DNA of 64,000 nucleotides from Candidatus Saccharimonadota bacterium (GTDB taxonomy: Bacteria; Patescibacteriota; Saccharimonadia; Saccharimonadales; Saccharimonadaceae). The notes beneath the pieces were generated by a model. The model was not told the DNA's origin. It saw only the letters and a program-made list of their open reading frames with translations, and searched no databases. The position numbers and the translations under genes were made by a program. Location of the stretch: the NCBI GenBank assembly GCA_017552385.1, contig JAFZQB010000008.1:1663-65662 (forward strand), in the 5' to 3' direction. This document shows positions 36,116-60,797 of this stretch, piece by piece (the first letter of the stretch is position 1; each line of letters starts with the position of its first letter).

Positions 36116-38320
36116 CTACAGTTTAATCAATTTCCAGTTTTGATTCTTCAGGGCAGTTCTCGTGAATATTTCAACGGTATAGTTGCCGCCAGTTTGTTTA
36201 TTCGACAAAGTGAGTGGCTTTCCGGAACAAGCTGAGGATATAATATATTCTTCTCCTGACCGTTCTATGCTCCAAAGCTGATTACAATAACCGCCATTGT
36301 CTTCGAAGGCAATCACGGAGCTTTCGTCTTCAATCCCGGAATTAGCTACATCAAGCCTCAACCCAGAGGTGGGGTTTGTAATATAGTAGGCATTCTTATC
36401 GGTGGAGAACTCGATTGCAAATGTTTGGTTGGCAATATTCTCGTTTCGGGCAGCAAATAAGATTAGCGTTCCTTGTTTCATGCCTGGCCTTACACCACCT
36501 GAAATATCTAAGGCTAGAGACGAATCGGCTGAGCGGATTTGGTATTCTCCCGCAAGTATGTTGAGAGATGTGTTACCCTTCGAGAAGTATGGTTCAAAAG
36601 TTACTTCTACGCCACTCGGCACGACTGTCGTGAATGTGTGATATTCCCCTTCTAGGTTTTGCGATGTGGCAATATTTGCGCCATCACAAACAGATTTGAT
36701 TCTGGCCCCTTTAGCCCTTTTGTCTAAAACCCATTTTTGAGAGCATTTGCTTTCGTCTTGTTTCTCTACAGATATTACTTCTCCGGATGTTAGCACGAGG
36801 CTGGAAGCTGGGTTTTTAAATATATAATTCTTTTCTTCTACGTTATATATTGCTTCGAAGAGTTGATTGTCTTGAAAATTTTTCTTAAAGCTAATTACTT
36901 TTCCTGTTGCCATGTTGTCGGACACTCCCCCGGAGATATCAAATGCATTTTCGCCTATTGATATCTGGTAGATCCCTTCTTCTATGGTTGAATCTGCTGG
37001 CTGAACTGCCTTCAAACTCCATTCTTGTACATTCGATGAAGAACGTTGATTAATAGCTAATACACCATTGGTGTTTTGCAGAACCTTACTCGAACAGCGA
37101 GAGACAAACTTCAGATAGCCAGCATTGGTTTTTTCAATAAGCCAATCTTGATTGCATGAATTATTCCTTGGAAAAACAATAAGTGCGCTTCCGTCGTCGG
37201 TCTTCCCACCACTAACATCAAGATAAAGATTAGTGGTTGGATTAATGATGTTGTAATAACCAGTATCGTTGTTAAATTGTATTTTAAAAATTTGGTTCTC
37301 GGTTGTTCCAGTATTTCGTGGAAAAACTAGCATATCCGCAATAGCCATACCATTTCTAACTCCCCCACGAATATCAAAAACTTTTTCTGGGTTAGATTTG
37401 GAGAAGATTTGATACCAGCCGTCTTCGACTGGCTGCTCGTTTTTCGTCTGAGCCTCGACTATGGGTTCTTTTGAAACTGTCGGGTCGCCAAACCAGTCCA
37501 TGAAGAAAAGATAGAAGTTACGATTGCCGTATGCGCCACAGGTTACAGTGCCATACCCAGCCGCAAGCGCAGCGGCGTTAGGTTGGTAAGGAGTATATCG
37601 ATAGAGCGATGAGGTAGCTAAATTCTCGATGTAGACGATTGAGCCCCCACAAGAAGCATTCGGGTTGTAGTGGATATAATTTTCTCCTAGTGGATAGTTT
37701 GTCCATCCACCATCGAGGACAGTGCGGAACAGCCAGGCTGCGCTTTCGAGCTGGTTCTTTAACCCATAATACTCGCTATCGCACGGAGCAGTGTCGGGGC
37801 AACCAAAACCAGTAGCTGAGCGGAACTGAATTGAGTTAGGCCAAGAATCAGAGATAAGGCCTTGTTCTTTTTCTAGGAGGACTAACAGGACCTGAGGATT
37901 AATCTTATATTTTTGCGAAACCTCGTAGATTACTTCTGCTGCAGTTTGAGACTCCTCGTCCTCTTCCAGAAGATCTCCGTAGTTTGCGCCAGTCACTGCA
38001 AAATGCTCATCGGCAAGACAGACAAAATGGCCATCCTCGATATGATAATGAAGTGACGGGTACCAAGAAGCTTTGATTGTATTGGTATCATTGCAACTAC
38101 CATGGGTATGGAGGAAAGCGTCAATATCAGCAACCGACATGGTGGTGTAATTTGACATGGTATAGTCAGAAATAATGTTGCCTGGATTGAAGTTGGCGAG
38201 CGAGGCAGCTTGAGATTCTCGTGGATGCGCGAAGGTCAAGAATGTAAAAATAGAAATAAAGGTGAAAAGAAAGGTGATTTTGTAAATAAGTCCAGGGTGG
38301 CGACGATTAAAAGCTTCCAT
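36116..38320 (-). CDS. Secreted cell-wall-hydrolase-like protein with three ricin-type beta-trefoil lectin domains
   Basis: 734 aa with a signal peptide. N-terminal domain contains YKINPQVLLVLLEKEQGLIS (glycosidase-like). Three roughly 140-aa repeats carry QxW/QxF motifs (QDW, QEW, QKW, QLW, QNW). Confidence 0.7.
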   Translation of the reverse strand: MEAFNRRHPGLIYKITFLFTFISIFTFLTFAHPRESQAASLANFNPGNIISDYTMSNYTTMSVADIDAFLHTHGSCNDTNTIKASWYPSLHYHIEDGHFVCLADEHFAVTGANYGDLLEEDEESQTAAEVIYEVSQKYKINPQVLLVLLEKEQGLISDSWPNSIQFRSATGFGCPDTAPCDSEYYGLKNQLESAAWLFRTVLDGGWTNYPLGENYIHYNPNASCGGSIVYIENLATSSLYRYTPYQPNAAALAAGYGTVTCGAYGNRNFYLFFMDWFGDPTVSKEPIVEAQTKNEQPVEDGWYQIFSKSNPEKVFDIRGGVRNGMAIADMLVFPRNTGTTENQIFKIQFNNDTGYYNIINPTTNLYLDVSGGKTDDGSALIVFPRNNSCNQDWLIEKTNAGYLKFVSRCSSKVLQNTNGVLAINQRSSSNVQEWSLKAVQPADSTIEEGIYQISIGENAFDISGGVSDNMATGKVISFKKNFQDNQLFEAIYNVEEKNYIFKNPASSLVLTSGEVISVEKQDESKCSQKWVLDKRAKGARIKSVCDGANIATSQNLEGEYHTFTTVVPSGVEVTFEPYFSKGNTSLNILAGEYQIRSADSSLALDISGGVRPGMKQGTLILFAARNENIANQTFAIEFSTDKNAYYITNPTSGLRLDVANSGIEDESSVIAFEDNGGYCNQLWSIERSGEEYIISSACSGKPLTLSNKQTGGNYTVEIFTRTALKNQNWKLIKL

Positions 38321-38910
38321 TATTCTGTGCTCCCTGTTATGCTACCTGTTCTCTCCCCAGAGGTCAGACTAATATTGATAGAAATTGGTCTCGCAAAACC
38401 ATCAAGCTCTGAACTTTGGACATCGAACCCTTCGCATGTCGAAGTAGAAGCGATTGGCACAAGGTTAGCGGTCTTTTCTAATTGATGCGCCCCGTCTGAG
38501 AGGGTAAGTTTACAAGTGCCATTTGACAGAAACTGATCAACAGCGACGCGGACTAACAGTTTATCGCCGTCGAAGCGCGCAGTAGTGATTGAGCCGGTGA
38601 GAGACTCGTAGGTGTTCGGGTCAGTCCCTTCGTATTTTTCTGGAGTTTTACCATCGGAAGATATAACGGAGTCCGTGGTAGAAGGGTCGGCCTCGGTCAT
38701 ATTGGAAGATTGTGTGGTCTCCTGTGTTTCCCCTGACGATCGTTTATCGGGATTACTATTAGTAACAGTATCAGTGCTAGGATTCATTGGCTGCCTAAAG
38801 GCAAGATATAGAAGAGCGGCAACAACGATTATGATAACGAAAAAGAAAAGTGGTTGTTTATAAAATGGGCGATGGCGACGAAGAGATGTTTGTTGTTTGT
38901 TTTGTGGCAT
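38320..38910 (-). CDS. Single-pass membrane protein with an S/T/D-rich linker and a small Cys-pair extracellular domain
   Basis: 196 aa. TM LFFFVIIIVVAALLYLAF. Stop overlaps the start of the ricin-domain gene. CAGGAG SD. Confidence 0.55.
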   Translation of the reverse strand: MPQNKQQTSLRRHRPFYKQPLFFFVIIIVVAALLYLAFRQPMNPSTDTVTNSNPDKRSSGETQETTQSSNMTEADPSTTDSVISSDGKTPEKYEGTDPNTYESLTGSITTARFDGDKLLVRVAVDQFLSNGTCKLTLSDGAHQLEKTANLVPIASTSTCEGFDVQSSELDGFARPISINISLTSGERTGSITGSTE

Positions 38911-38967: not shown

Positions 38968-40092
38968 CTAATATTTGTAGATATACCATCCTTTGGTTTC
39001 GTAATGGAAACGCCATGCGCGGGAGTGACCTTTTACGCCTGTAGTGTGAAGTTTTGCGTCCCATGGGTCAACATAGCTAAATTGGACTTCCTTGCCATCA
39101 AGAATGATATGTGGTTGGTCCCAGTTCTCGCCGATACAAGTGTTCTGGTCGAAGTATACTTCAATTCGATCAACATTTGTGGTGTTAACAAAACTCGAAA
39201 CGCCAACAAATGTAACAAAATGGCGACCAACTTTCCCGTTGTATTTCTTGCCGTAAGTCTTATTGCCCATGGCAACGCTGACTGGTTTGCCGGACATTAT
39301 TTCTCCGACAAGTTCTTTCACGAGAGCCTTGAAAGCATTACGGTTGACTACCTTGCTAGAAGAATTTTTGATAACCGAGCCGTTGCAATGCATTGGCGAA
39401 TTGTCTTCATTATCGTTAGAGGGTATTGTTTGTGTATGGACAGAAGCGCCACCTCTCAATGGGGCTTCGTGGACTATAGGATTGCCATAAATCATTTCTT
39501 TGGCATTAACGCGAGCCATATCTGCACATACGCTCCCCCACCCGCTAGTGGCCTTATACGATTGGCAGGAGTGGTACTTGGAGCAGGCATTTTTTACATA
39601 TTCTGAAGCGTGAATTTTGGTATCTGCGTAGCAAAAGCCTCCTTCTTCATAAGTGTGCGGGTTGTCCGCACAGGAGACACCTTCTTTGGTTTCCTTGGGC
39701 GGGATTTCTTCTTCGCCCTCACCTGGCGGAGTAGGGGTGACTGGCTCTTCTGGTTCCTTTGGGCATGAAGAAGTCATAGTGTCTAATGTCGAATTAATAA
39801 TGCCACCAGGAATTAAGAACTCAGCAAAAGCAAAGAAAACGCTATAGCACATTATTCCAATAATTATTTCCGCAAATCGCCGTTTAGCCTTGGTTTGAAG
39901 GGCGGGATTGCCAGCGGAAGTTATATACGAAACCCCGACTATTATGATGCTAATTACCGCGAATGCGCCGATTAAAATAGTGAGAATCTCAATACCTTCG
40001 GCAAGTATTTTATATATTGCCCCGCCATCGCAGTAGTCGCAAACTTTTCCAAATAGACCTGTGTCAATGCATTGCAGTATTCGTTCTGACAT
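38968..40092 (-). CDS. Fusion protein: T4SS-pilin-like (VirB2/TrbC-like) membrane hairpin plus P/E linker plus Cys-rich segment plus putative papain-like Cys/His domain
   Basis: 374 aa. VISIIIVGVSYITSAGNPALQTKAKRRFAEIIIG aligns with the pilin paralogs at 60282-62240. The C-terminal domain (GSVCADMAR ... GRHFVTFVGV ... VDPWD) is paralogous to ORF 49975-50871. Confidence 0.7.
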   Translation of the reverse strand: MSERILQCIDTGLFGKVCDYCDGGAIYKILAEGIEILTILIGAFAVISIIIVGVSYITSAGNPALQTKAKRRFAEIIIGIMCYSVFFAFAEFLIPGGIINSTLDTMTSSCPKEPEEPVTPTPPGEGEEEIPPKETKEGVSCADNPHTYEEGGFCYADTKIHASEYVKNACSKYHSCQSYKATSGWGSVCADMARVNAKEMIYGNPIVHEAPLRGGASVHTQTIPSNDNEDNSPMHCNGSVIKNSSSKVVNRNAFKALVKELVGEIMSGKPVSVAMGNKTYGKKYNGKVGRHFVTFVGVSSFVNTTNVDRIEVYFDQNTCIGENWDQPHIILDGKEVQFSYVDPWDAKLHTTGVKGHSRAWRFHYETKGWYIYKY

Positions 40093-40094
40093 GT

Positions 40095-40853
40095 TTATTC
40101 TTCTCCCGAGTTAATATATATCGGATCTGTCCAGACATAAAAGTGCTTTTTAGAAGATAAATTATTAAATATTTCTGAGCCAGTATATTGCTCTGGCAAA
40201 TCCGTTTCGCTATGCTTTAGATTCTCGTCAGAAGAATCAGCGCAAGAGATAGGGGATATATTATATATAGAATCAGCGAGTGAGCCACCGAATATTAGAA
40301 TAGCTTTACTAACTTCGCCAAATTCGTAATCCCATTGGCCAGATATTATAACGACAGAGGCGTTGTCGAGATACAGATTAAGCATAGTTGGGTTCATTCG
40401 TGGGACTTCTACAAGCTCACTACATAGAATATTAGTAGGCGGTTCAGAATAATACTTTTTTGAAATACTAAAGTCTGGCATATATGATGACCCCGGATCC
40501 TTAGATAGCTCATAAAAGTAATTGTTTAGTGCTAGCTCTTCGTCGACAACCGTATCGTCGGTGATTATAGAGCCATCCTGCGAAGGTGTCTCCTTGGCTG
40601 GCTTGGCAGGTTCAGAAAGCGACACGAGAATGATTAGAAGAATAACAATTATTATGAGGCCGATTGTCACAGGGATAGTCCAAAGCGGGAAGGCAGTAGT
40701 CTTATGCTGCTCTTTCCATGCTTGTTTGGCACTAGGATTAGACGGTTCAACAATAGATCCGGTTGGAGATTGACTAACTCTTGTTGAATGGCCAAGCGAA
40801 GCTAAGGCTCGTCTGTTTGTAGAATGAGCCGCATCTGTAAATCTTCTTTTCAT
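40095..40853 (-). CDS. Single-pass membrane protein, paralog of ORF 49352-49987 (candidate immunity/partner protein)
   Basis: 252 aa. TM IPVTIGLIIIVILLIILVSL. C-terminal strings MLNLYLDNASVVIISG and SEIFNNLSSKKHFYVW match ILNFYLDQEDTIVAILE and SELFNQLTSSTKFYIVK. TGCTAAAAT lies 7 nt before the ATG. Confidence 0.6.
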   Translation of the reverse strand: MKRRFTDAAHSTNRRALASLGHSTRVSQSPTGSIVEPSNPSAKQAWKEQHKTTAFPLWTIPVTIGLIIIVILLIILVSLSEPAKPAKETPSQDGSIITDDTVVDEELALNNYFYELSKDPGSSYMPDFSISKKYYSEPPTNILCSELVEVPRMNPTMLNLYLDNASVVIISGQWDYEFGEVSKAILIFGGSLADSIYNISPISCADSSDENLKHSETDLPEQYTGSEIFNNLSSKKHFYVWTDPIYINSGEE

Positions 40854-40900
40854 TAAGCTTATTTTAGCATGCGTACAAGGCTGATTGCAAGGAAAGGATA

Positions 40901-41248
40901 CTAACTCTGTCGTTGAATAGAGTCCGGATCTAAACCTAAAATCGCGGCGGCCCTTAGAAGTGTCTGGATATCCTCTTCAGACTCAGAGGAGTTGATAGCT
41001 TTAGCGAAGAGAGTGACGGTTTCAGGATATATATCGATAGTAACTTCGAGTGAACGGGCAGCTCCTGGAATTTTTCTTAGAACTCCTTTTGCTACAAGGT
41101 TCTCAATATGCTCAGCAACGGCAGAGACAGAGGATAGCCCTACTCCAATCATAATCTCACGATAAGATGGAGAATAGCTATTTTCTCTGAGAAAAGTCGA
41201 AATAAAGTCTACAATTTGCTTTTGCTTTTTTGTCAGTTTTTCGGGCAT
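40901..41248 (-). CDS. LexA N-terminal-type winged-helix DNA-binding protein without a peptidase S24 domain
   Basis: 116 aa from ATG 41248: MPEKLTKKQKQIVDFISTFLRENSYSPSYREIMIGVGLSSVSAVAEHIENLVAKGVLRK. The longer track ORF (to 41470) overlaps the divergent LCP gene. Confidence 0.7.
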   Translation of the reverse strand: MPEKLTKKQKQIVDFISTFLRENSYSPSYREIMIGVGLSSVSAVAEHIENLVAKGVLRKIPGAARSLEVTIDIYPETVTLFAKAINSSESEEDIQTLLRAAAILGLDPDSIQRQS

Positions 41249-48343: not shown

Positions 48344-49359
48344 TGATAGTAAAGAACTGTAAACTTACAAACTTTAGGAGTCACGACTATTTTGAGCTAA
48401 GTTGTTGGAAAGAAACAACGATGCTTTCTGGCGAAAATGGCAGCGGGAAGACCTCTATCCTAGAGGCGATATATGAAGCGATGCGTGGTAAAAGCTTTCG
48501 GGCTGTAGATAAAGAGATTATAAAGCGCGGAGCAGACTTCTATAGGGTTGAGTTGGAATATAAAGATGGCGAAAAAACGACAGTAGTGTATGAGAAAGAT
48601 GGGAAGAAGTATTTTCTTGTTGGTGATAAGAAAGCCGCGAGGCTTCCGCAAAAATATAGGTACCCAGTAGTTTTGTTTGAGCCGGACGACTTAAACTTGA
48701 TAAACAGTTCCCCGTCGCACAGGAGAGACTATTTTGATAGGTATTTTGGCCAATTAAGTGATACATATAGTACTACTGTAAGTAAATACAACAAAGCCCT
48801 CAGACAAAGGAATGAACTATTAAAAAGCACCTTCATATCACGAGATGCGATGTTCTCGTGGAATATAATTTTGAGTCGCCTTGGTGTAGAAATATGGAGA
48901 AGCAGAGAAAAGTTGGTGGCGAGTATTAATGAAGAGCTCACGAAGGTGTATCAGTCGATTGCTGGGAACGACGACGAGGTAGTTATTAAACTAAAGGCAG
49001 ATCCTTGTGGGAGGACGGAAAGTGATTATTTAGGCGAATTAGAGAAAGGGTTTGAAAAGGACAAAGTGCTTAGTCACACGAGTTTTGGTGTACATCGTGA
49101 TAATTATGAATTTTGGTTTAATAATAGACTAGCGGACGGGTCGGCGAGTCGCGGCGAAGTAAGGTCTATTGTAGTTGCACTGAAGTTTATTGAGGCGGAT
49201 ATGATATTAAAAACAGTTGGAAAGGCGCCGGTAGTATTGCTTGATGATGTGTTCTCTGAGCTTGATGAGATGAGACAAAAAGCATTGGTATATAATTTCA
49301 AAAAGAACCAAGTAATTATTACGAGTGTAAATGCAGTTGAAGACATCGAGACTAGTTAG
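48343..49359 (+). CDS. recF: DNA replication/repair protein RecF
   Basis: 338 aa. Walker A GENGSGKTSILEAI, and LLDDVFSELD Walker B/D-loop. ATGA overlap with dnaN. Confidence 0.9.
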   Translation: MIVKNCKLTNFRSHDYFELSCWKETTMLSGENGSGKTSILEAIYEAMRGKSFRAVDKEIIKRGADFYRVELEYKDGEKTTVVYEKDGKKYFLVGDKKAARLPQKYRYPVVLFEPDDLNLINSSPSHRRDYFDRYFGQLSDTYSTTVSKYNKALRQRNELLKSTFISRDAMFSWNIILSRLGVEIWRSREKLVASINEELTKVYQSIAGNDDEVVIKLKADPCGRTESDYLGELEKGFEKDKVLSHTSFGVHRDNYEFWFNNRLADGSASRGEVRSIVVALKFIEADMILKTVGKAPVVLLDDVFSELDEMRQKALVYNFKKNQVIITSVNAVEDIETS

Positions 49360-49987
49360 TTGAGTCTGATGCTGGTTTTTTAACGATGTAAAACTTTGTT
49401 GAAGAGGTGAGTTGGTTGAAGAGTTCAGAACGCGAAAAATGAATAGCGGCTTCTTCTGGGAATAGATAGTCGTCTTTATTGGAGCCGTCTGGATTAAAAT
49501 CGGATGGGTCGAAGCCGACGAAACTATAGTTATATGCAGCGCTAGCATATATAAACAGTGTGGTGGATTTTTTGTCTAGCGAAGAAATACCAGATGGTTC
49601 AAGAATAGCAACGATGGTATCTTCTTGGTCTAGGTAGAAGTTTAATATATTAGAATTCATTGCGGCGACACTCGTTGCGGACGAAAAATCAGGGTTTTCA
49701 ACATTAATATTATAGAGGAGGATGATTTCTTCAGGAACAGCTCCGTAGTTAGGAGAGACTTCGTTTGGTGTTGTGTAGTTGTGGTTGGGGTCTTTGTCTA
49801 CAATAGAGGCAAGTGTTTCATTGAGGCTCTCAACTTGTTCTTGTTGCTCTGCTGTGATAACGTTGTTAAATCTATCCTTGCCGATTATTACAACTATAAT
49901 GATAGCCACAATGGATAAAGCCATGATTATTAGGGCAGCGAGTAAGAGCTTTCGTTTTTTATTGTAGTCTATCATTATGTACCACAA
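49352..49987 (-). CDS. Single-pass membrane protein, paralog of ORF 40095-40853 (candidate immunity/partner protein)
   Basis: 211 aa. TM LLLAALIIMALSIVAIIIVVIIG. Shares C-terminal strings with the 252-aa protein. Start overlaps the upstream gene by 13 nt. Confidence 0.6.
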   Translation of the reverse strand: MWYIMIDYNKKRKLLLAALIIMALSIVAIIIVVIIGKDRFNNVITAEQQEQVESLNETLASIVDKDPNHNYTTPNEVSPNYGAVPEEIILLYNINVENPDFSSATSVAAMNSNILNFYLDQEDTIVAILEPSGISSLDKKSTTLFIYASAAYNYSFVGFDPSDFNPDGSNKDDYLFPEEAAIHFSRSELFNQLTSSTKFYIVKKPASDSTN

Positions 49988-50871
49988 TCCTTTCGATCAT
50001 CGCCGGTCTTGGTGGTCGGTATATAATACTCTGATTCGTAAATGAATCTATTTTGTTTATCGGTGCGGCTGCAGCTGCCATTAGACCAACGGTAGCCCCC
50101 AAAGACTCCGGAGATGTTGTTCCATAGGATGCCACCACCAAAGGTTTCTAGGAATAGGAAGTCCGAATTGTCTAGGTGTTCACGATTTGCGTTTTCTTTA
50201 ACACCGACGACGGTGGCATAATGGCGTTGTGCTTGGGCATCCTGTGAGGTTCTCATAGAAACACGCCGTACGGCGGGGCGACCAGCCATAATATCATCAT
50301 ACATTTTTTGGAAGTTACCATCTCCTTGTATTAAGGAAAACCCGCTAGGTGTTCTACCGCGATCATACCTGCCAGTGCTACAGGAATCGGAGGTGATTGT
50401 GTCGTAAAACATATCATAGGCCATATTACGAGAAACGATATCACAATGTCCATTTTGTGCCGTGGAGTCGGTGTGATTACCATTGAGGTCATAGAGCTTT
50501 TTGTCGCTTTGATCAATATGGTAGGCGCGGACCTTTTCGGCAATATATCTTTCTAGACCGGTTTTGCCGTCGGACCCATCATCATCTTTACCGTTTACAG
50601 TAACTTTAATAACGTTGAATGTCATACCGCACATTGTGAATTTTGTAACGCCTTGGCCTTCCTCGGATGGTACATTACCGCCACCCTCCTCTTCTTCTCC
50701 CTCTGTGCCACAATCTGTTTCATCGTCACATGGTCTAGTAAAAATAATTCCCTCTAGAGCGTAGCGCTGTCTTTCTGCGTTCGAAAATTGGTAAGCAAAG
50801 GCTTTAATAGTTATAGCGCCAGCGATAATGATAGATAGTAGAATAAGAGGAAAATAGTTTTTTCTTAACAT
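49975..50871 (-). CDS. Secreted/anchored protein with a putative papain-like Cys/His domain, paralog of the C-terminus of ORF 38968-40092
   Basis: 298 aa. N-terminal TM/signal, acidic G/E linker, then NGHCDIVSRNMAYDM ... FQKMYDDIMAGRPAV ... QRHYATVVGV, matching the same ordered motifs in the pilin-fusion protein. TGCTATAAT lies 7 nt before the ATG. Confidence 0.65.
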   Translation of the reverse strand: MLRKNYFPLILLSIIIAGAITIKAFAYQFSNAERQRYALEGIIFTRPCDDETDCGTEGEEEEGGGNVPSEEGQGVTKFTMCGMTFNVIKVTVNGKDDDGSDGKTGLERYIAEKVRAYHIDQSDKKLYDLNGNHTDSTAQNGHCDIVSRNMAYDMFYDTITSDSCSTGRYDRGRTPSGFSLIQGDGNFQKMYDDIMAGRPAVRRVSMRTSQDAQAQRHYATVVGVKENANREHLDNSDFLFLETFGGGILWNNISGVFGGYRWSNGSCSRTDKQNRFIYESEYYIPTTKTGDDRKDCGT

Positions 50872-50894: not shown

Positions 50895-51572
50895 TTATTG
50901 TAAGGAATTGAGCGAACGGACCATCTGTTGATCGAGAAAGGAAAGGTCGGAGTAAGTGTAAAAGAGTTTAGGCATCGTTTTTGGCTCGCCGTTCTCTAGG
51001 ATAAAGCGATAGGTATTAGTGGAGCCGTCATAAAGAGAATGGGTGAGGGTCTGGACGGTATATGGAGATTCGCCAAAAGCGTAGAGATTGGATTTTGTAA
51101 ACCCAGACGGTAGATTATTGGATTTGAGGTCTTCTAAAGAGTAGCCAGTGAAGGGGTTGTAATAATTTAGGAGCTCGATCTCATAATCAAGAGGGTCGTA
51201 TTTGCCAAAATTTTCAGTGAGAAGACGTGTAACCATGGTATCGCGAGAGGAGGCGGAAAGTGCAGAAAGAGTGAGCTTAAAAGTGTAGTCTCCCATACTA
51301 TCGGTGTCTAAAAGGTAAGAGATTTGGTATGATGGGCTTTCGGAAATAATCGGGAGATAGTCAGAGATTTTAAAAGCTTCATTTTCTGAGAGGGCTTTTT
51401 GATCAGCCGCAAGAGAGGCGTCGTACTCTCTAGAACTATCACCTTCGATACCGTCATTTTCTGAAGAAGTGGCTATGCTAACTATGACCGCTAAAACGAC
51501 GATAATAAGAAGACCAACGACGACGAAGGAGAGAAGTTTGTGTTTTTGAAAGAGGGATTTAATAGTCTGCAT
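50895..51572 (-). CDS. Single-pass membrane protein in the T4SS operon (position analogous to VirB8/PrgL-like components)
   Basis: 225 aa. TM LLSFVVVGLLIIVVLAVIVSIA plus a roughly 180-aa extracytoplasmic domain. The functional call rests on gene order only. Confidence 0.4.
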   Translation of the reverse strand: MQTIKSLFQKHKLLSFVVVGLLIIVVLAVIVSIATSSENDGIEGDSSREYDASLAADQKALSENEAFKISDYLPIISESPSYQISYLLDTDSMGDYTFKLTLSALSASSRDTMVTRLLTENFGKYDPLDYEIELLNYYNPFTGYSLEDLKSNNLPSGFTKSNLYAFGESPYTVQTLTHSLYDGSTNTYRFILENGEPKTMPKLFYTYSDLSFLDQQMVRSLNSLQ

Positions 51573-51574: not shown

Positions 51575-53041
51575 CTATGACTCACTTTCAGCATCAGTTA
51601 TGACTTCATCGGCCGGGATATTAGTCTCTGGATTGGCCGCAAGGCGATAGACAGAGATTGGATAAGTGGTGCCATTGAAGCTAGAGGACATACGGGAGAG
51701 ACGGTTTAAAGAAGGGGTCCAGGTTTGGTAAGAAGCGGAAGCGATATTAACCTTGCAGGTGCTATTGGGGCAAGCGCTACCTTTAACGGTTTGCTCGCCA
51801 ATCCAAATTTGGATGTGGCCACCACGGGCATCGCCGCTTCCAGAAGAATAAGCAAGCACATCGCCCGGTTTGAGGTTAGACATTGAAAAAACTTGTCCGT
51901 CAGTGGAGACTTTTGTCCACTTATTGGACCGATTCATATAAGCCATCTGGGAGCGAACGCCGACTTTAGGAAAATCGGTATCGACTTGGGAATAAACCAT
52001 GACAGCGCCGACGAATTTACCACAGTCGCGGAGAGAAAGACCACCGACGGCTTTTTGCGCAAGTTTTGCTGTGGAGTTGAGCGTGTTAGAGCAAGCTTGA
52101 ATGCCGCCATCGGCACGAGGCTTCCAGGCAGTGAGGCCATAGAAAGTCTCACAATTCCCTTCGGTGTTTGGCCAAGACATCGAAATGGCTGTCTCAACGA
52201 TTTTCTTGCTGCCTTCTGTGCCGCTGCTAATGCCATTACAGGAGACGGACGATGAAATGGTACCTACAGTTGACCCAGATATTTCTCCGACTTCAGCGAG
52301 GGCAGACTTAGCCCATTTAAGACGATTCATGAATGCGGAGTAGGCAGATGAGGTTTGTGTTTCGGAAAGTTCAGCGTAAGATCCTGGTGCGTAGTTGTTA
52401 TAGCAACCGGCACGATCGTTGGTGGTGCAAAATGAGGAACGAGGAGTTTCAAAGCGACGATACATAAAGAAGGTGGCGTCTTCTAGAGAGCTGGCATTCA
52501 TATTAGTGACAGATGAGCCATGACCACGCACTTCACGTTGGAGTTCATCGAACAAGTAGCCCAATTGGGCTTCCATAGAGATTACTGGTAAACCATTTGC
52601 GTCGGCGAAATTTTGGAGTGCGGTTTGTCGTCCAGAAGAAGTCCATTGTGCTATACCGAACCCACGTTTGCCGTACTTTTCCCATGAGGTAAGGCGCCAA
52701 GTTGGGTCTGTGACTAGTTCCCCGCCTTCTTTTTTGTTTGGAACAACGCTAGACTCGGCAATGAGGTTGCCAACGATAGCTGCGGCGGAGGTTGCAGAAT
52801 AGCCTTTATTGATGAGGTAATTTAGGGCGGTTTTAGAATTGTCACCCAGGTCGACCAAGTCACCATCTAAACAATTGGATGAGGCAGTTTCATCATCTAT
52901 AAACATAATGTTGTTTTGAGCATAAAACTTGAGATCTTCTTTTGATATAGCATATGCAGAAACTGTAAGATAAGCAGGCGCCACAAAAGAAAGGAGAACA
53001 CTAGAAACAAGAAGAAGGTAACGTTTGACCATATAATACAT
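51575..53041 (-). CDS. T4SS-associated peptidoglycan hydrolase (tail-lysozyme-like N-domain plus CHAP/NlpC-P60-like C-domain; VirB1/PrgK analogue)
   Basis: 488 aa with a signal peptide. AAAIVGNLIAESS...GFGIAQWTSSGR lysozyme-like motif. C-terminal CGKFVGAVMV ... GGHIQIWIG Cys/His pair. The true start may be MVKRY (53032). Confidence 0.7.
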   Translation of the reverse strand: MYYMVKRYLLLVSSVLLSFVAPAYLTVSAYAISKEDLKFYAQNNIMFIDDETASSNCLDGDLVDLGDNSKTALNYLINKGYSATSAAAIVGNLIAESSVVPNKKEGGELVTDPTWRLTSWEKYGKRGFGIAQWTSSGRQTALQNFADANGLPVISMEAQLGYLFDELQREVRGHGSSVTNMNASSLEDATFFMYRRFETPRSSFCTTNDRAGCYNNYAPGSYAELSETQTSSAYSAFMNRLKWAKSALAEVGEISGSTVGTISSSVSCNGISSGTEGSKKIVETAISMSWPNTEGNCETFYGLTAWKPRADGGIQACSNTLNSTAKLAQKAVGGLSLRDCGKFVGAVMVYSQVDTDFPKVGVRSQMAYMNRSNKWTKVSTDGQVFSMSNLKPGDVLAYSSGSGDARGGHIQIWIGEQTVKGSACPNSTCKVNIASASYQTWTPSLNRLSRMSSSFNGTTYPISVYRLAANPETNIPADEVITDAESES

Positions 53042-53114: not shown

Positions 53115-54941
53115 CTAGCGTTGTTGGGGTTGGATAGCACCTGGATTGGTAGTGATAAGAGATTCTTCAGTCTCAGATGCAATAACTTGGATATGAACGT
53201 GGTTTGGTCCGGCGAAGAAGAGACCTTGTCCGACCGGGAAGCTAGCAAGGCGCTTCTTCTCCTCGTCGGTGAGTTTGAAGACATCGGAGAGAACATCTAC
53301 TGCAGACGACGATTGTTTTAGAAGAAGCTGCATGGAGGAGTTAGTAACAATAGCACGGCCCATTTTAGTAGACATAAAGTCTTCGACATCTTGAGTAATG
53401 GTGGTAAGACCGAGATAGTATTTGCGAGCACGTTTGGCTAGTGAGAAGAGGAAGTTTGCGGAATCTTCGAATTGCATGAGTTGCCAGGCTTCGTCGACGA
53501 TTAGAAGACGACGTTTTTGCTCAGCGCGGACGACATTCCATATATGGGAGAGGACGATATACATAGCAACGGGACGTAGTTCGTCCTCAAGATCGCGGAT
53601 ATTGAAAACGACCATTTGGTTATTGATGTCAACATTGGACTGTTGCGAGAAGATGCCTGCGAAAGTTCCCGTGGTATATTTACGAAGGCGTTGAGCGAGC
53701 TGAGGGCCGGAGCCTTCCATATGAAGAAGAGTGTCGTAAAGATTAATGATAGTTGGTGGGGTGCTCTGGTGGGTGAGCGGATCGGAGGTGATGCCAGCAC
53801 GAGCATAAGTGTCAATGAGAGCTTGGTCAAGATCAGCTTCTTCGTTAGGCGTGAGCGGAATAGCTGGCTGTCCATTTACGGGTGTGCCACTGAGCATAAG
53901 ACGGAAAAGACCATGTAGTGTAACGAGGTTGGCACGGAGCGCATCGTTGGCATCTTCAGAGTCGACGACTTTTGGTAGGTCGAAAGGATTGATCCGGACA
54001 TCAGAGTTGAGACTTAAGCGGATATAGGAACCGCCGACGGCGTCACAGAGCTTTTGGTACTCGTTTTCTGGATCAATGATAATGATTTCACTACCGATCA
54101 TCATGGAGCGAAGAGCTTCGAGTTTAACGGTGAAAGATTTACCTGCACCGGACTTAGCGAAGACGACCATATTAGCATTTTCTAGCGAGAAGCGATCGAA
54201 GATGACGAGGCCGTTGTTGTGCATGTTGATACCGTAGAGGATGCCTTTCTCTTGAGTGAGATCGGCGGAAGTGAATGGGAAGGAGGTAGAAATAGCGCCC
54301 GTATTCATGTTGCGGCGAATTTGAAGTTGGTCGGTACAAAGTGGCATACAAGACTGCATCCCTTGTTCCTGTTGAGAAGAAGCGACTTTGGAAAAGACCA
54401 TTTGTTGGCCAAAAAGAGTTTCTATTTTTTGGCGGACGAACTTTAGCTCGTCTAGTGAGTCGGCCCAAAGGGTAACATAAAGGCCAAAACGGAAGAAACG
54501 TTCGGCGCCGACTTGGAGCTGATCGCGAAGCTCCTCAGCATCGTTGATGGCTGCTTCAAGTTCTGGATCACGAATGCGGCCTCTCTCGGCGTTAACGTTC
54601 ATACTAGCTTCGAGCTGGGTAACTTTCTTGCGAAGGTTTTTCATAACTACGCCAGTATCGACAGGATAAATGAACATGGAGATATCAAGGACCTCGTCGA
54701 TATTAATGAGTGGCGAGAGCCAACCGGTATAAAGAGAGCGTGGGTATCCGTAAACATACATAGTGAGGCCGTATTTGGTGCCAAGGCGAAAATGGTCGGA
54801 TTGAATTTCGAGCGAGGATGGAGAAATAAGGTCGCGAAGGGTGGTAATTCCCTGCTCAAACGCCTGTTGGATTTGTTGGTCTTCGTTGATTTGGCTAGAA
54901 GCGCCGATTTGCGCGGCAGTTTTTTTATTTTTCTTAGGCAT
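53115..54941 (-). CDS. virB4: VirB4-family T4SS ATPase (PrgJ/TraE-like)
   Basis: 608 aa. Walker A VFAKSGAGKSFTVK and Walker B RLLIVDEAWQL. N-terminal domain YGYPRSLYTGWLSPLI is typical of Gram-positive VirB4. Confidence 0.9.
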   Translation of the reverse strand: MPKKNKKTAAQIGASSQINEDQQIQQAFEQGITTLRDLISPSSLEIQSDHFRLGTKYGLTMYVYGYPRSLYTGWLSPLINIDEVLDISMFIYPVDTGVVMKNLRKKVTQLEASMNVNAERGRIRDPELEAAINDAEELRDQLQVGAERFFRFGLYVTLWADSLDELKFVRQKIETLFGQQMVFSKVASSQQEQGMQSCMPLCTDQLQIRRNMNTGAISTSFPFTSADLTQEKGILYGINMHNNGLVIFDRFSLENANMVVFAKSGAGKSFTVKLEALRSMMIGSEIIIIDPENEYQKLCDAVGGSYIRLSLNSDVRINPFDLPKVVDSEDANDALRANLVTLHGLFRLMLSGTPVNGQPAIPLTPNEEADLDQALIDTYARAGITSDPLTHQSTPPTIINLYDTLLHMEGSGPQLAQRLRKYTTGTFAGIFSQQSNVDINNQMVVFNIRDLEDELRPVAMYIVLSHIWNVVRAEQKRRLLIVDEAWQLMQFEDSANFLFSLAKRARKYYLGLTTITQDVEDFMSTKMGRAIVTNSSMQLLLKQSSSAVDVLSDVFKLTDEEKKRLASFPVGQGLFFAGPNHVHIQVIASETEESLITTNPGAIQPQQR

Positions 54942-55784: not shown

Positions 55785-56714
55785 TTAATGATGATGTAAA
55801 CTAATATATACTTCGTCTCGATCAGCATTGCGATTACGACTTTTACTCGCGCGGTTTGCTTCTTTGGCGATAGTAGCAATGGTGAATTGTTTGTTTTTCG
55901 ACAGCTCGACGAGGCGCTCATGGTTGGCGGAAATAGTAGCAAGGGGATTAGAGGGGAGCTGTTCTTCGGGTATTTGGGTCGCATCGGTGGCTTTGGCAGA
56001 AGAGACGGCTGGAGCAACTGGGGCTGGAGGAGTAATAGGTGTGGTTTGGGTGAGATTAGCGGCGTTAAACTGAGGCATTGGTGGCTCTTCGGGAGCAGCG
56101 GGCTGTATGGGATTATTAGCAGCGATGGCGGCGCGCATTTGTTGAATAATTTCAGCGCGACGTAAGTCTGCTTCAGAGGAAAGATCGGTAGAAAGTTGTT
56201 CGGAGTGGTAGTTTTCGAAAATGTCGGGCGTCGATTCGGCTTCGGCGATAAATTCATCACGGATTACAGAATCAGTAGAAGAAGCCAAACCTTCTTTAAT
56301 TGAAAGACCTTCGCTATCCACGACGTTTGCAAGGAAGGAAAGACGACGCCCGGCTTCTTCTTCAGTAATGTCTTTGGTGAGTGATTTCTCGACCGTCTTT
56401 GGAACGGTGATCCTAATAGTGGATTCTCGTTGACCTGGGCGCCAGCAACGTTTGTTCGGCTTAAGATGGAAACTGATAATAGCAGCAACGTAGGTTTCCA
56501 TAGGCTGGTCTTTGCGAAGAGGAAGTGCAAGAATGAGCAAGAAAATAGCCGGAATGACGGGTATGATTGCAAAGAATGGAAAAATTTGGCCGACTACCCA
56601 AGCTAGGGCAATGAGGGCGGCGACGATGAGCAGGTAGATAAACTGACGGAAGTTAAAAGGGCCTAGAAGTTTATCGTCCGCTTCGACATCCTGAGGGACC
56701 TTATATTGCGCCAT
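55785..56714 (-). CDS. PrgI family (VirB3-like) T4SS membrane protein with a long A/P-rich C-terminal extension
   Basis: 309 aa. MAQYKVPQDVEADDKLLGPFNFRQFIYLLIVAAL... is the PrgI-type start, followed by two TM segments. Confidence 0.7.
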   Translation of the reverse strand: MAQYKVPQDVEADDKLLGPFNFRQFIYLLIVAALIALAWVVGQIFPFFAIIPVIPAIFLLILALPLRKDQPMETYVAAIISFHLKPNKRCWRPGQRESTIRITVPKTVEKSLTKDITEEEAGRRLSFLANVVDSEGLSIKEGLASSTDSVIRDEFIAEAESTPDIFENYHSEQLSTDLSSEADLRRAEIIQQMRAAIAANNPIQPAAPEEPPMPQFNAANLTQTTPITPPAPVAPAVSSAKATDATQIPEEQLPSNPLATISANHERLVELSKNKQFTIATIAKEANRASKSRNRNADRDEVYISLHHH

Positions 56715-56743: not shown

Positions 56744-59700
56744 TTAGAAGTTGGAATCGTCGTCAATGCAACGAAGGATAAAGTCGAGGAGAGAATCGTT
56801 AAGTTCACTGTTGTTACGTTCGTGATGGTCACGGACTTGGTCAACGATGTGTTTGAGGCCATAGGAAGAAAGGATGCCGATACTGTCTTCGTAGAAATGT
56901 TCACCGTCTGGGTCTGCATTGAAAGCATCTCTGATGGACTCCTTGAGCATACCGCGTTGTTCTGGGGTTAGGATAGGTGCGACGCCAGAATCAACACCGG
57001 ATTCAGAACCTGGTTCTGGTGTAGTTTCCTCTTCTTCTGAATGCTCTTTTTTGCGCTCACGATCTTCGCGGTGTTTACGACGGCGTTCGTAAATTTTATC
57101 GCGGTAATCGTCAACAAAGTCTTCGGAGTCGAGGCCAAGGAAGTCACGGACAGAGGCCTTGGTGCCGGCAGCGACGCCAGAGCGACGGCTGGTCATGACT
57201 TGGTCTAAGGTCTTGGTACCATAGAGGAGGTTCATAAAGGCTACCTTAGCAAACTTCTTGCGTAGGGCTTTCTTGCGTTTAGCAAGGTCTTTGTTATCTC
57301 TTTCTTTACGTTCTTTTTCGGCATCAGAATCGGTATCGCGAATTTCTTCTGGATCTTGGCTGTACCAGTCAGGAAGTGTTCGATCGGGTTGATCTTCTGG
57401 GCCTAGGGTAGAAAGAATATCAGGAGCAATTTCGGCGATAGGATCTGGGTTATGGGCTGGATCTTCTGCGTGCTTCTTGAGCTTCTCGGCATAGTCTAGG
57501 CCAAGGGCTTCTATGATTGGATAGAATACATCGGTGCGTAGGCCAAGAATTTGAGATGGAGTTTGCCATTTGAGATAATTCTTGACACGCTCAGCGAAGA
57601 ACTGTTGGTCGACGCCGAAGAATGGATCTTTTGGATCAGTCCAACGAGGTATCCATTCGCCATCTTTGCCGCGCTTGAGACCGGTGAGGTCGGCAGCGCC
57701 ATTGACGATTTGCTCTGAACCAGATGCATATTTGAGCATGGCTGAGATATAAGCTGGCGCCATAGCCATTTCGACTTCACCCATTTTCTTCTTAAAGGCT
57801 TTAAGGGCTTCCGGGTCAGGGTGTTCAGTGCCCGGTTCAATATAGGCGTTGCGAATACGGGCAGCCATATTATCAAAGTAAGTACGTTCGATTTTATCAA
57901 GAGGAGTACCTTCAACAAGTTGAGCAAGAGATAGTTTGGATCTACCTGCGCCTTCTACGAGCCGGCCATGTTCATCGTACTCATCATATCTACCGGTAAT
58001 ATATTCGTTAAGGCTGAGTGTAGTGTTTTGACGTTTTGGTCTGGATTGGCCTTCGTTAAATACACGTGCTGTTTCAAGATTGATATATTTACCAAAGCGG
58101 CGAAGGAATGGGTCGGAGTCCTTAGTGGTAAACATACAGAAGTTGGAGAGCGACTGAGAGGCATGAGTACCGAGTTTAATCTGCTTAGAATCAAGCATAC
58201 GTTCGACGACGTCGGTTACGAGGTCGGTATCGCCGCGTAGGTTGAGGGCGGTAAGACCAGTAATGATTGGATCGATGTCCTTTGCTATATGATCGGTACC
58301 AGTGAGTTGGAAGAGGCGGTCGTAGAGCTCTTGAGTGGCTGGAATAGCGGAGAAGTATGAGTAGAACTTCTTGCCGAGAACTTTGGTCTGGCTTTCGAAG
58401 TCGGCAGCTGCGTTGGCGCCAACAAGATGAGTACCCGCGACATCGCCTTCAAGAGCGGAGGCAATTTGGTGATAACGATCGAGGTCACCATAATTGACAG
58501 AACGGGCTAACTGTTCGGCGCGTCTGGTAGCGTTGAAAGTGGCATTGCTATGAGCATTAAGGGCGGCATCGATGCGATCCTGACGAGATTGAGCATTGTC
58601 GAAGCGGATCTTCTCGCCACGAGTGGTTTCATAATATAGAGCATCGGCAGCGTTGACGTTGCCCATATCGATTGCTTTGAGACGAGCTCGCTCTCTGTCG
58701 TTCGTTGCGTAGTTGGAAAGGCCTTTTTGGGCATCATTATCGTTCTTAAGAATGCGGCGCTGGTATTCTGAGTTTTGCGCAATGAGAGAGGTGAGCTCGC
58801 GACCACGCTTACTGATTCTGCCATCGCGATTGCGAAGCTCTGAAGCGTAGGCGGCGCCACGAAGTTTGGCGACCTCGAGATATTTCTGAGTGTCGGATGC
58901 AGTGCGAACCTTGCGGTCTTGGTGAGTTTGACCGAACTGACGGGCGTATTGCCAAGTGTGAGGCTTGCCGCCAAGGTATTTGGCGCGTCGTAAAGCGACT
59001 TCGTCGGCGGACCAATTGCGAAGCGCGCCAACAGGATGGCTGCTGAATTTGGTGAGCATGGAATTGATTTGGCCTGGAAGCGTGCCGGACATTTTAAGTA
59101 GTGGCCAGCAAGCAATGAGAGGAATTACTTTAACTGCGATACCCATAATGAGAACAAGCACATCTTCAGCAGCAGCAATAATAGTCCAGCCTACAAGAGA
59201 ACAAGCGCCGAACAAGACGGCAAACATTGGGTAGAAGAAGAGCATTTGAGAAAGAGACTTCTTCCACGTCGTAAACCATTTTTCGGTGTTTGGCAGGAGG
59301 TTGCAGACGAAAGCCAGAGGGCTGACCATGATGAGCAGATATACAAACGCTTGTCGGGCTGCAATGGTGACATAAGCGATGGCAACGGCGAAGACGGCAG
59401 TGAGGAGGACTGGTAGAAGGGAGAAAAAGATGGCGCCGAGACCACCGGATGCACCGACGGCAAGGCCGGCAATAAGCCCGCCTCCGATAAGTCCGGAGAC
59501 TATATTGGAGAAGTCAATCTTAGTTCCTTCGGCCGCGCTCGCGATAATTCCAGTAGCGGTGACACTTTGCTCGACGTTAGAGAAGAGTCCTTTTAAGGAG
59601 GCGCCAAGAATGTTCGAGACATCAACTAGAGCCGCACAAATGATATAGCTCAAATTGATAAGAATAGCCGAGACGATAATTTTAGGAAGGAGTTTTTTGA

Positions 59701-60281: not shown

Positions 60282-60746
60282 ATGAAAAAGAGATTATTGA
60301 CTATTGTTGCGGGGATAATGATGATAATGTGCGCACTGATGCCGATGAGCGTGAGTGCGGACGAGGGTGGAGGTGGTGGCAGTAGTGGTAGCAGCTGTGG
60401 AAGCGTAACGTTTTTTGGGCTTGATCCATGGTACTCAGCATTAACTTGCAATGCTAGTGGCGAAATAGATCAGAGCAATTTTCAAGGTTCTACTCTTACT
60501 ACTAGTACTATACCTAAGATAATAGGCGTGGTAGTGAAAGACGCATTGTTCTTGGCGGGCTTTGTAGCGGTGGGTTTTGTGATGTATGGCGGGTTCTTAA
60601 TGGTGACTAGCTCAGGGAATCCGACAGCTGTAGTAAAAGCGAAGAAGACGATTTCGAATGCGTTAATAGGGTTGGTTATCTCGATATTGGCTACTGCTAT
60701 AGCAACTGCTGTAATGAATGTAGTCACTAAGGGCTCGATATCTTAG
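60282..60746 (+). CDS. T4SS pilin-like protein (VirB2/TrbC-like, T4SS_pilin family), paralog 1
   Basis: 154 aa. Signal peptide ...MPMSVSA|DEGGGG, variable region with 2 Cys, and conserved hairpin GFVMYGGFLMVTSSGNPTAVVKAKKTISNALIGLVISILA. Confidence 0.8.
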   Translation: MKKRLLTIVAGIMMIMCALMPMSVSADEGGGGGSSGSSCGSVTFFGLDPWYSALTCNASGEIDQSNFQGSTLTTSTIPKIIGVVVKDALFLAGFVAVGFVMYGGFLMVTSSGNPTAVVKAKKTISNALIGLVISILATAIATAVMNVVTKGSIS

Positions 60747-60782
60747 AGCCGCTTTGATGAATTCGTATGGGCGTGGATAATG

Positions 60783-60791
60783 TGATACAAT
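60783..60791 (+). promoter_or_regulatory. Extended -10 promoter (TGATACAAT) 6 nt upstream of the pilin-2 ATG; leaderless-type
   Basis: TGATACAAT-aaggcc-ATG. Confidence 0.6.
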
Positions 60792-60797
60792 AAGGCC

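Follow-up and report, generated by a model that had tools for sequence, protein, structure and literature searches.

The window analysed in this study, a stretch of 64,000 nucleotides from a Candidatus Saccharimonadota bacterium (contig JAFZQB010000008.1, positions 1,663 to 65,662), contains a gene at 38968..40092 on the minus strand whose product, referred to here as the target, joins a hairpin like that of the VirB2-like pilins of type IV secretion systems (T4SSs) to a C39_2-like cysteine hydrolase domain. The C-terminal domain of this protein is exchangeable between genomes, a partner gene appears to be coupled to the target gene, and a second enzyme/partner pair with no pilin hairpin was found in the same window. 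Because of these three features, the sequences point to an effector/immunity-type system rather than to a one-off fusion. The reading favoured here, which we regard as about equally likely to be right or wrong, is that the target is a polymorphic, pilin-anchored, surface-exposed effector of gut Saccharibacteria with a cognate immunity-like partner, and that it probably cuts cell-wall peptides. A previous sequence-only reading of the window had recognised the fusion of pilin hairpin and enzyme; it missed the exchangeable C-domain, the partner gene (40095..40853) and the second, non-pilin pair (49352..50871), and its interpretation overall is partly supported by the present results.

The pilin-like module and the enzyme domain

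The target gene was composed of the following parts:

38968..40092, minus strand: target gene, 374 aa, with pilin-like hairpin, linker and C39_2-like cysteine hydrolase domain (list of open reading frames, ATG start)
39994..40092, minus strand: N-terminal tail, residues 1-33, with a QCxDTxLFGxVCDxCDGG motif, three Cys and no signal peptide (conserved in 16 fusion proteins)
39808..39993, minus strand: pilin hairpin with helix 1 (34-57), basic loop TSAGNPALQTKAKRRFA (58-74) and helix 2 (75-95) (hydrophobicity, charge, hhalign, BLASTP)
39760..39807, minus strand: conserved post-helix-2 motif GGIINSTLDTMTSSCP, residues 96-111 (alignment of fusion N-modules)
39688..39759, minus strand: Pro/Glu-rich linker, residues 112-135 (sequence; length and composition vary between orthologues)
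38971..39687, minus strand: papain-fold Peptidase_C39_2-like domain, residues 136-374 (conservation, AlphaFold2 (AF2) model, remote homologues, PDB profile, Foldseek)
39562-39564, minus strand: predicted catalytic Gln177
39526-39528, minus strand: predicted catalytic Cys189
39220-39222, minus strand: predicted catalytic His291
39067-39069, minus strand: predicted catalytic Asp342

The stop codon of the preceding gene lies 2 nt before the ATG of the target gene, which leaves no room for an upstream extension, and a hidden upstream signal peptide is therefore impossible. A frameshift chimera was considered and rejected, because the exact target protein, recorded at NCBI as hypothetical protein IK146_01600 of Candidatus Saccharibacteria, was found on three contigs, and because its orthologues keep the architecture and the neighbours. 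These orthologues are full-length, share 45-65% identity with the target and occupy the same chromosomal slot in the loci L001 and L007, which shows that the target is a real gene. The presence of the fusion in related genomes was further confirmed by the fusions retrieved in the genome scan described below.

The N-terminal part of the target exhibited two hydrophobic stretches (residues 26-62 and 72-99), and its two hydrophobic helices are joined by a short basic loop with four K/R and no D/E, as is characteristic of VirB2-like pilins. In BLASTP the target shared 42% identity over 55 aa with the window pilin 61854..62240 (E 2e-9), and hhalign of the 16 fusion N-modules against the five window pilins gave a probability of 97.7% (E 1.7e-12) over 77 columns. 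The hhalign match covered helix 1, the loop motif Y-x-T-S-x-G-D/N…KAK and helix 2 (target residues about 28-106); since it spans both helices and the loop, the similarity goes beyond that of generic transmembrane helices, and the claim that the N-terminus carries the two-helix signature of the five window pilins was thus borne out. The score of the target itself with the Pfam T4SS_pilin family (PF18895) was 22.8 bits, below the threshold of 26.6 bits; two fusion relatives scored above the threshold (P0012 with 30.2 bits and P0013 with 26.7 bits), and a precomputed PF18895 match was available for P0002.

The target also differs from the small pilins in several respects. It starts with MSERILQC and has no hydrophobic leader, whereas all small pilins compared, from the window and from L012-L025, have leaders. 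Moreover, it runs on for about 280 residues after helix 2, far beyond the size of a small pilin. The fusions form a different hairpin subfamily as well, their hairpins ending in EFLIPGG and those of the five window pilins in AIVNFVIG, and no other IPGG-type pilin was present in the window. The small pilins of L012-L014, L017, L019, L020 and L022 end at (E/Q)F(L/I)IPGG(V/I)(L/I)N, and the fusions continue past exactly this point with STLDxxTxSCP, the linker and the enzyme, so that the fusion resembles a C-terminal extension of one pilin subfamily. A function of the conserved post-helix-2 motif as a junction or processing site would be speculative. Small pilins of the EFLIPGG type were also observed to bear a Cys-rich N-terminal region with the motif C-D-L-(V/I)-x-(K/T)-Y-(L/I)-(N/D)-P, and those of L016 and L018 carry a short Pro/Thr-rich tail past the IPGG point, like a linker without a domain.

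The topology of the hairpin was predicted from the positive-inside rule. The loop is basic (+4/0), the N-terminal tail is net acidic (3+/5-) and the post-helix-2 segment is acidic (2+/9-), so that both ends of the hairpin, and hence the enzyme domain, are predicted to lie outside the membrane, in agreement with the extracytoplasmic location proposed previously. Non-catalytic Cys number four in the tails flanking the hairpin and six in the enzyme domain; these even numbers would allow disulfide pairing, which fits an oxidising location.

The Pro/Glu linker noted in the sequence-only reading is present at residues 112-135. It had low pLDDT in a structure prediction of the full-length protein, which was made from four orthologues only and was unusable (pLDDT 42), and the C-domain was then modelled alone. 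A "5-Cys segment" had been placed between the linker and the enzyme; the five Cys (C141, C154, C170, C176 and C189) do exist, but they form no separate unit, because they lie within the first part of the enzyme domain and include the catalytic Cys189. The three motifs named for that domain, GSVCADMAR with Cys189, GRHFVTFVGV with Arg290 and His291, and VDPWD with Asp342, were found in the target, and the residues concerned are conserved or invariant across homologues. In an alignment of 31 diverse C-domain homologues (A4), whose subtypes share less than 25% identity with each other, Cys189 and Arg290-His291 were invariant, Gln177 was conserved in at least 90% of the sequences, and the column of Asp342, which belongs to an (I/L)D(S/T/P)W(D/G) motif, was conserved in at least 70%. 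Gln, Cys, His and Asp are thus conserved in the order known from the papain clan.

The assignment to a papain-like fold of the C39_2 type was supported by profile and structure comparisons. A profile from the C-domains of types A, B and C (alignment A1; type A is that of the target) was searched against 1.84 billion cluster representatives and gave 123 matches, of which 82 were scanned for domains. PF13529 (Peptidase_C39_2) was matched by 62 of these 82 remote homologues, T4SS_pilin was found in 7, Phage_lysozyme2 in 3 and Peptidase_M23 in 2, and homologous C39-like domains co-occurred with Phage_lysozyme2, Peptidase_M23 and PG_binding_1. The C-domain of the L010 fusion matched PF13529 with 30.0 bits against a cutoff of 24. 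The AlphaFold2 model of the C-domain, made from the 31-sequence alignment, reached a pLDDT of 82 and a pTM of 0.86; in fragment numbering, Cys55 lies near the start of a helix (54-68) and His157 near the start of a strand (156-165), as in papain-like enzymes. In a Foldseek comparison with the PDB the staphopains A, B and C came out best, followed by 9jdd_A and then by Der p 1, phytochelatin synthase and bleomycin hydrolase. All of these are papain-fold enzymes, and the matches were weak.

Furthermore, the A4 profile matched the PDB chains 9jdd_A and 9jg8_C, both named "Peptidase C39-like domain-containing protein", with an E of 5e-5. The entry 9jdd is a crystal structure of the complex between the C-terminal domain of BtaeB, a type VI secretion system (T6SS) effector of Bacteroides fragilis, and the cognate immunity protein BtaiB; in PMC13402684, BtaeB appears under the name of effector Bfe7. 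The best viral fold matches of the C-domain were actinobacteriophage lysins, and these were weak (E 0.02-0.1). No match for the C39-like domain was found in PHROGs, where the matches of P0038 lie in its N-terminal M23-type region. A classical bacteriocin C39 peptidase was rejected, as there is no PF03412 match and no adjacent ABC exporter, and as the domain is predicted to be extracytoplasmic. In nine homologues that do not look like members of the candidate phyla radiation (CPR) (P0029, P0031, P0032, P0036, P0037, P0039, P0041, P0048 and P0050), the C39_2-like domain was observed C-terminal to a helical or coiled-coil region of 200-300 residues without a Pfam match, an architecture reminiscent of secreted polymorphic toxins. 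An LXG module of the type VII secretion system was suspected in the Firmicutes-like proteins P0029, P0031, P0036, P0041 and P0048; Pfam identified no LXG domain in them, and no claim is made.

Exchange of enzymes, partner genes and chromosomal setting

The distribution of the pilin-like module was surveyed by a scan of 185,579 GTDB species representatives with an alignment of the N-modules (A7). It gave 19 loci, all from Saccharibacteria, comprising 5 fusions and otherwise ordinary signal-peptide pilins, and the four genome-derived fusion carriers came from ruminant-gut samples. The N-module was conserved at 55-72% identity while the C-terminal enzyme differed between genomes. The architecture of the target (type A) recurred in P0002-P0004 with 45-65% identity. 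In P0005-P0011 the N-module is about 63-70% identical and is followed by a different C39-like domain (type B), the type B C-domain being fused to the pilin module also in L008, L009 and L029, and P0012 carries a type C C39-like domain, and the L010 fusion a further C39_2 subtype, on the same N-module. In addition, enzymes of entirely different kinds were found on the pilin N-module: P0013, from a metagenome contig (L005, 3083..4204), bears an alpha/beta-hydrolase (Abhydrolase_2/Esterase_PHB), and a protein from a goat-gut Saccharibacterium (L011, 5001..6254) bears a NAGPA phosphodiester glycosidase domain (PF09992). A constant N-terminal region with alternative C-terminal enzymes is the organisation by which polymorphic toxins are recognised.

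The same exchange was seen at a single chromosomal slot, in which the genes are ordered LytR, LexA-like regulator, cassette, 196-aa protein and large lectin protein. This slot holds partner A with the pilin-type A fusion in the window, L001 and L007, and the pilin-type B fusion with partner B in L004 and L029, which shows the replacement of cassettes at one locus between genomes. The genome RGIG5879 carries both a type A fusion (L007) and a type B fusion (L008), at different places.

The partner genes and the second enzyme gene of the window are as follows:

40095..40853, minus strand: partner gene A, 252 aa, upstream of the target gene, with a basic N-terminal tail, one transmembrane helix and a domain of about 170 aa predicted to face outward
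49352..49987, minus strand: partner gene B, 211 aa, which overlaps the type B enzyme gene at the latter's end (partner-family HMM, E 3e-91)
49975..50871, minus strand: type B C39-like gene, 298 aa, with a plain N-terminal signal anchor and no pilin hairpin (A4 profile, hmmsearch, E 4e-41)

A gap of 2 nt separates partner A from the target, and this spacing indicates that the two genes are translationally coupled. Partner A is a paralogue of 49352..49987 (E 4e-8). Searched with the family HMM, a gene of the partner family was found to abut every C39-like gene examined, in 13 loci, either overlapping it or at most 4 nt away. For type A (window, L001 and L007), type C (L006) and the L010 type it precedes the enzyme gene, and for type B (window, L004, L008, L009 and L026-L030) it comes after it. 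The partner subtype tracks the enzyme subtype, A occurring with type A and B with type B: the gene that follows the pilin-type B fusion in L004 shares 65% identity with partner B of the window and only about 30% with partner A. Beside the two non-C39 fusions, L005 (esterase) and L011 (NAGPA), no neighbour of the partner family was detected, from which it follows that the partner belongs to the enzyme and not to the pilin module. The family is small, with 13 clusters in the whole collection searched, and all traceable members are in Saccharibacterial contexts. An adjacent small gene that co-varies with the toxin type is what is found in effector-immunity pairs, and partner A is a candidate cognate immunity protein or inhibitor. 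The domains of enzyme and partner are both predicted to be exposed on the outer face of the same membrane, which would fit an immunity role, because the immunity protein or inhibitor of an extracytoplasmic hydrolase must sit there.

The type B enzyme and partner B are located at the edge of the T4SS cluster. Just upstream of the type B gene, a 225-aa membrane protein (50895..51572, minus strand) gave a weak match with the partner-family HMM (E 9e-5), and the same three-gene arrangement of type B enzyme, partner and membrane protein of the 225-aa type recurred in L027. In the neighbouring lysozyme-type protein (51575..53041, minus strand), the N-terminal hydrophobic leader is followed, at residues about 33-50, by the motif (E/K)R/LK-x-(F/Y)-(A/G)-Q-N-N-I-(I/L/M)-F. 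This motif was also observed in leader-bearing C39-like or lysozyme proteins (P0018, P0022-P0024, P0026, P0028 and P0033), and the type B protein of the window has a degenerate version of it (ERQRYALEGIIF). The motif may belong to a second kind of N-terminal module, for targeting or as a pro-region, which is used in alternation with the pilin hairpin.

The window corresponds to the region of a Saccharibacterial chromosome around the replication origin. Pilin arrays and a T4SS near dnaA have already been described for Patescibacteria (PMC12102498), and the T4SS of the window is of the Gram-positive type. The relevant features are:

40861..40890, minus strand: promoter-like site just upstream of partner gene A, TTGCAA-18-TAAAAT with TG (consensus scan; weak, the number of sites found being about that expected from shuffled sequence)
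40901..41248, minus strand: small LexA_DNA_bind-type regulator, adjoining the partner/effector operon on its upstream side (PF01726 matched by the syntenic genes of L001, L004 and L029)
43.7-49.4 kb of the window: rpmH, rnpA, yidC, dnaA, dnaN and a recF-like gene
51575..53041, minus strand: Phage_lysozyme2 wall hydrolase in the T4SS cluster (Pfam)
53115..54941, minus strand: VirB4-like ATPase, T4SS core (Pfam P-loop_TraG/AAA_10)
55785..56714, minus strand: PrgI/VirB3-like gene, T4SS core (Pfam PrgI)
56744..60172, minus strand: large polytopic VirB6-like candidate (size and hydrophobic segments only; no Pfam match)
60282..62240, plus strand: array of four small signal-peptide T4SS pilins (PF18895 above threshold)
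63691..63984, minus strand: fifth small T4SS pilin (PF18895 above threshold)

The position of the LexA_DNA_bind-type regulator is conserved in L001, L004, L007 and L029; the gene was listed as an open reading frame of 189 aa, and its start is probably at the internal MPEKL (41248). On the other side of the target gene, between it and the lectin protein, lies a conserved 196-aa single-pass membrane protein (38320..38910, minus strand) with a Ser/Thr-rich stalk and a Cys-containing C-terminal domain, which is 57% identical in L001 and L004, whichever effector type fills the slot. The gene that follows, two genes downstream of the target, encodes a secreted protein of 734 aa (36116..38320, minus strand) with Ricin-B lectin repeats in the window copy. 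Its N-terminal part of about 283 aa shares 85-91% identity between genomes and its C-terminus is wholly different in each, other repeat types being present in the counterparts of L001 (4897..6567), L004 (10424..11782) and L007 (6799..8397); the neighbourhood thus encodes one more surface protein whose C-terminal part is exchangeable. Three consecutive genes farther away (5859..9182, minus strand) have type IV pilin- or pseudopilin-like N-termini (KKGFTLIELS and KTGFTIVEVA) and large, variable C-terminal parts, and the window therefore also carries components of type IV pili, which are distinct from the T4SS pilins.

Proposed mechanism and competing explanations

Under the favoured reading, the pilin hairpin would insert with both ends outside the membrane and would hold the hydrolase on the outward side of the membrane or at the cell surface, and the flexible Pro/Glu linker would let the C39-like hydrolase reach beyond the membrane. 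The ectodomain of the co-translated partner would bind the hydrolase and neutralise it in the producer. The hydrolase would attack a different cell where the epibiont makes contact, either its actinobacterial host or an epibiont that competes with it, and most probably it would cleave peptidoglycan stem or cross-link peptides. Cell-wall peptides are considered the most likely substrate because the domain co-occurs with lysozyme, M23 and PG-binding domains, because it is similar to a T6SS effector domain, and because the alternative cargoes are an alpha/beta-hydrolase of the carboxylesterase/PHB-depolymerase type and a phosphodiester glycosidase, both of them candidate envelope-active enzymes. 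The pilin module would serve as an anchor, or as a trafficking handle to the site of T4SS/pilin assembly.

Several observations weigh against this reading. The fusions were detected in only 4 of the 185,579 GTDB species representatives and on metagenome contigs, all of them Saccharibacteria. Searches of PDB, Pfam and NCBIfam with the single target sequence returned nothing for the C-domain, including no PF13529 match, and the Foldseek matches, all papain-fold at the top, had low scores (E about 1e-2, TM 0.3-0.4), which is partly due to the two large, lineage-specific insertions that the type A domain carries. The partner family has no relative in Pfam, NCBIfam or the PDB, and the partner could alternatively be an activator, a chaperone or a substrate. 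Moreover, immunity genes usually follow toxin genes, and the type A partner lies upstream of its enzyme gene. Orphan immunity genes and spare toxin cassettes are typical of polymorphic toxin loci; in the window and the loci examined, no spare C-domain fragments, orphan partners or partner arrays turned up apart from the weak partner-like match at 50895..51572, although these were not searched for systematically. Finally, the target gene lies outside the T4SS cluster: the VirB4-like gene is about 13 kb and the pilin array about 20 kb away, with yidC, rnpA, dnaA, dnaN and recF-like genes in between.

A more specific version of the favoured reading, which corresponds to the display model of the sequence-only reading and which we consider rather unlikely, regards the target as a modular T4SS pilin. 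Its hairpin would be pulled out of the membrane and polymerised as a minor subunit into a VirB2-like pilus, and the filament would bring the hydrolase to the wall of the host. In favour of this, the homology of the hairpin to T4SS pilins is genuine, the two termini are predicted to be outside the membrane, and a long flexible linker is what would be expected of a grafted module. F-pilin accepts short additions at its C-terminus, which are exposed on F pili, and "modular pilins" with grafted domains are known from type IV pili. The pilin arrays of Saccharibacteria are essential for epibiotic growth, and a pilus has been proposed (PMC12857230); however, a pilus has so far not been observed in these organisms. 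Furthermore, the target lacks the signal peptide of the small pilins of the window and of L012-L025 and belongs to a subfamily different from that of the five window pilins, with no small EFLIPGG-type pilin in the window for co-polymerisation, and its gene is not part of the T4SS cluster. A globular domain of 26 kDa would also be sterically hard to pack on a helical-hairpin subunit of 7 kDa, and the same pair of enzyme and partner occurs with a plain signal anchor as well (49975..50871). In its widest form, this idea takes the VirB2-like hairpin for a functional subunit of a pilus, or for a handle that the T4SS recognises. Gut Saccharibacteria would load interchangeable envelope-degrading enzymes (C39-like hydrolase, esterase and phosphodiester glycosidase) on the essential T4SS filament to breach the wall of the actinobacterial host or of a rival epibiont, and a membrane-anchored immunity protein would guard the producer. 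Such loading of the filament appears doubtful to us; if true, it would be an undescribed trafficking mode for polymorphic toxins and would provide the first concrete cargo of a Patescibacterial T4SS.

The target might instead be a housekeeping autolysin that opens the cell's own wall for the assembly of the T4SS, the pilus or the type IV pilus or for division, with the pilin hairpin as a recycled anchor and the partner as a regulator. Gram-positive-type T4SSs require dedicated wall hydrolases, the T4SS cluster of the window has a Phage_lysozyme2 protein (51575..53041), P0026 and P0033 each combine a homologous C39-like domain with Phage_lysozyme2 in one protein, and a membrane tether would retain the enzyme at its own wall. 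This explanation is nevertheless judged unlikely, since it would not lead one to expect that subtypes are replaced at the same locus, with a matching swap of the partner, between close relatives, or that an esterase or NAGPA is exchanged for the enzyme on the same anchor; the patchy distribution, with four GTDB species representatives, and the nearest solved relative, an interbacterial effector, also argue against it. The findings on exchange likewise bear on a processing peptidase, which would trim the leaders or C-termini of pilins or other secreted proteins in the manner of C39 peptidases and be targeted by the pilin-like hairpin. A hairpin that mimics the substrate could set the enzyme beside it, and some VirB2/TrbC pilins are C-terminally trimmed or cyclised. 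Classical C39 domains cut leader peptides (PMC3482391), but the target has no true C39 family match and no ABC transporter context. A co-varying partner with subtype swaps and non-peptidase alternatives on the same anchor misfit such a role, most Saccharibacteria with pilin arrays do without the fusion, and we therefore give this explanation very little weight. A surface protein that acts as an adhesin or antigenic decoy, with the papain-like fold as a scaffold of no catalytic importance, would accord with the two large insertions in the domain and with neighbours that encode variable surface proteins, such as the Ricin-lectin protein 36116..38320. However, subtypes with less than 25% identity to each other retain Gln, Cys, Arg-His and Asp with few exceptions or none, which indicates selection for catalysis and makes this last explanation scarcely credible.

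Relation to known systems

The T4SS and the VirB2-like pilin arrays of Saccharibacteria are essential for growth on the host, and their cargo and function are an open question (PMC12857230). The locus described here offers a handle on the role of this T4SS, as a pilin-type module is covalently joined to exchangeable enzymes and each C39-like version has a matched partner. Should the enzyme be guided to the T4SS or a pilus by the module, candidate effectors would have been identified, a new trafficking domain would be added to the polymorphic-toxin repertoire, and a way would be suggested in which an ultrasmall epibiont opens the wall of its Gram-positive host. Even the conservative reading, a membrane-tethered effector with its immunity protein, defines two uncharacterised families, namely the partner and the divergent type A/B C39-like subtypes. 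The fusion is carried by a narrow clade of Saccharibacteria that are uncultured and known solely through ruminant-gut genomes and metagenome contigs.

The components and the logic of the system are of known kinds; what appears to be undescribed in the literature searched is their combination, in which a VirB2-like hairpin forms the unchanging part of a family of exchangeable effectors. The sequence-only reading knew of no described pilin-effector fusion of this type, and no description of a T4SS pilin joined to an enzyme was found in that literature: the papers searched on Patescibacterial T4SSs describe small pilin arrays and no enzyme fusions. With the VirB2-like small pilins themselves (PF18895; PMC12102498, PMC12857230) the target shares the two helices, the Y-x-T-S-x-G-D/N…KAK loop and a Cys-containing pre-helix segment; it differs from them by the missing signal peptide, the C-terminal extension of 260 residues with the enzyme, the location outside the array and T4SS cluster, and the EFLIPGG subfamily. 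The concept of a globular module grafted on the C-terminus of a pilin is shared with PilB and PilC of Streptococcus sanguinis, which are modular type IV pilins; these belong to an unrelated pilin class, their modules are adhesive and not enzymatic, and no partner gene is known to accompany them. To our knowledge, "modular pilins" are known for type IV pili and not for VirB2-like pilins.

The system resembles polymorphic toxins (PMC3482391), in which an N-terminal trafficking region stays constant, the toxin at the C-terminus can be exchanged and a neighbouring immunity gene co-varies with it; C39-like peptidases (Tox-PL-C39) have a firm place among their toxin domains (Zhang et al. 2012, PMC3482391). 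It differs in that the partner is upstream for some subtypes and in that neither spare cassettes nor poly-immunity arrays turned up, and the terms pilin, VirB2, TrbC and type IV secretion are all absent from the text of that survey (PMC3482391). BtaeB/BtaiB (PDB 9JDD, 9JG8/9JG9), the nearest solved sequence relative, likewise combines a C39-like C-terminal effector domain with a dedicated immunity protein, the profile match being confined to about 60 residues around the His strand and the fold match being weak (TM about 0.3). BtaeB is delivered by a T6SS spike, whereas the target bears a pilin hairpin instead, and the partner of the target has no detectable similarity to any PDB chain.

Staphostatins are co-transcribed with staphopains and protect the producer, the staphostatins being cytoplasmic and the staphopains secreted as soluble proenzymes. 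The staphopain/staphostatin system (PDB 1PXV, 1Y4H), which includes the best fold match of the C-domain, also combines a papain-fold cysteine protease with a specific inhibitor. The matching staphopain chains are 173-183 residues long, have no membrane-hairpin module and share only 10-12% identity with the C-domain.

The effectors of the Xanthomonas T4SS (X-Tfes) are soluble and are recruited to VirD4 by a C-terminal XVIPCD domain. They are antibacterial enzymes, many of them wall-acting, and are matched by cognate extracytoplasmic immunity proteins (X-Tfis) (PMC6536674, PMC8740702). In contrast to the X-Tfes, the target has no XVIPCD domain, and its enzyme is carried covalently on a pilin-type membrane hairpin.

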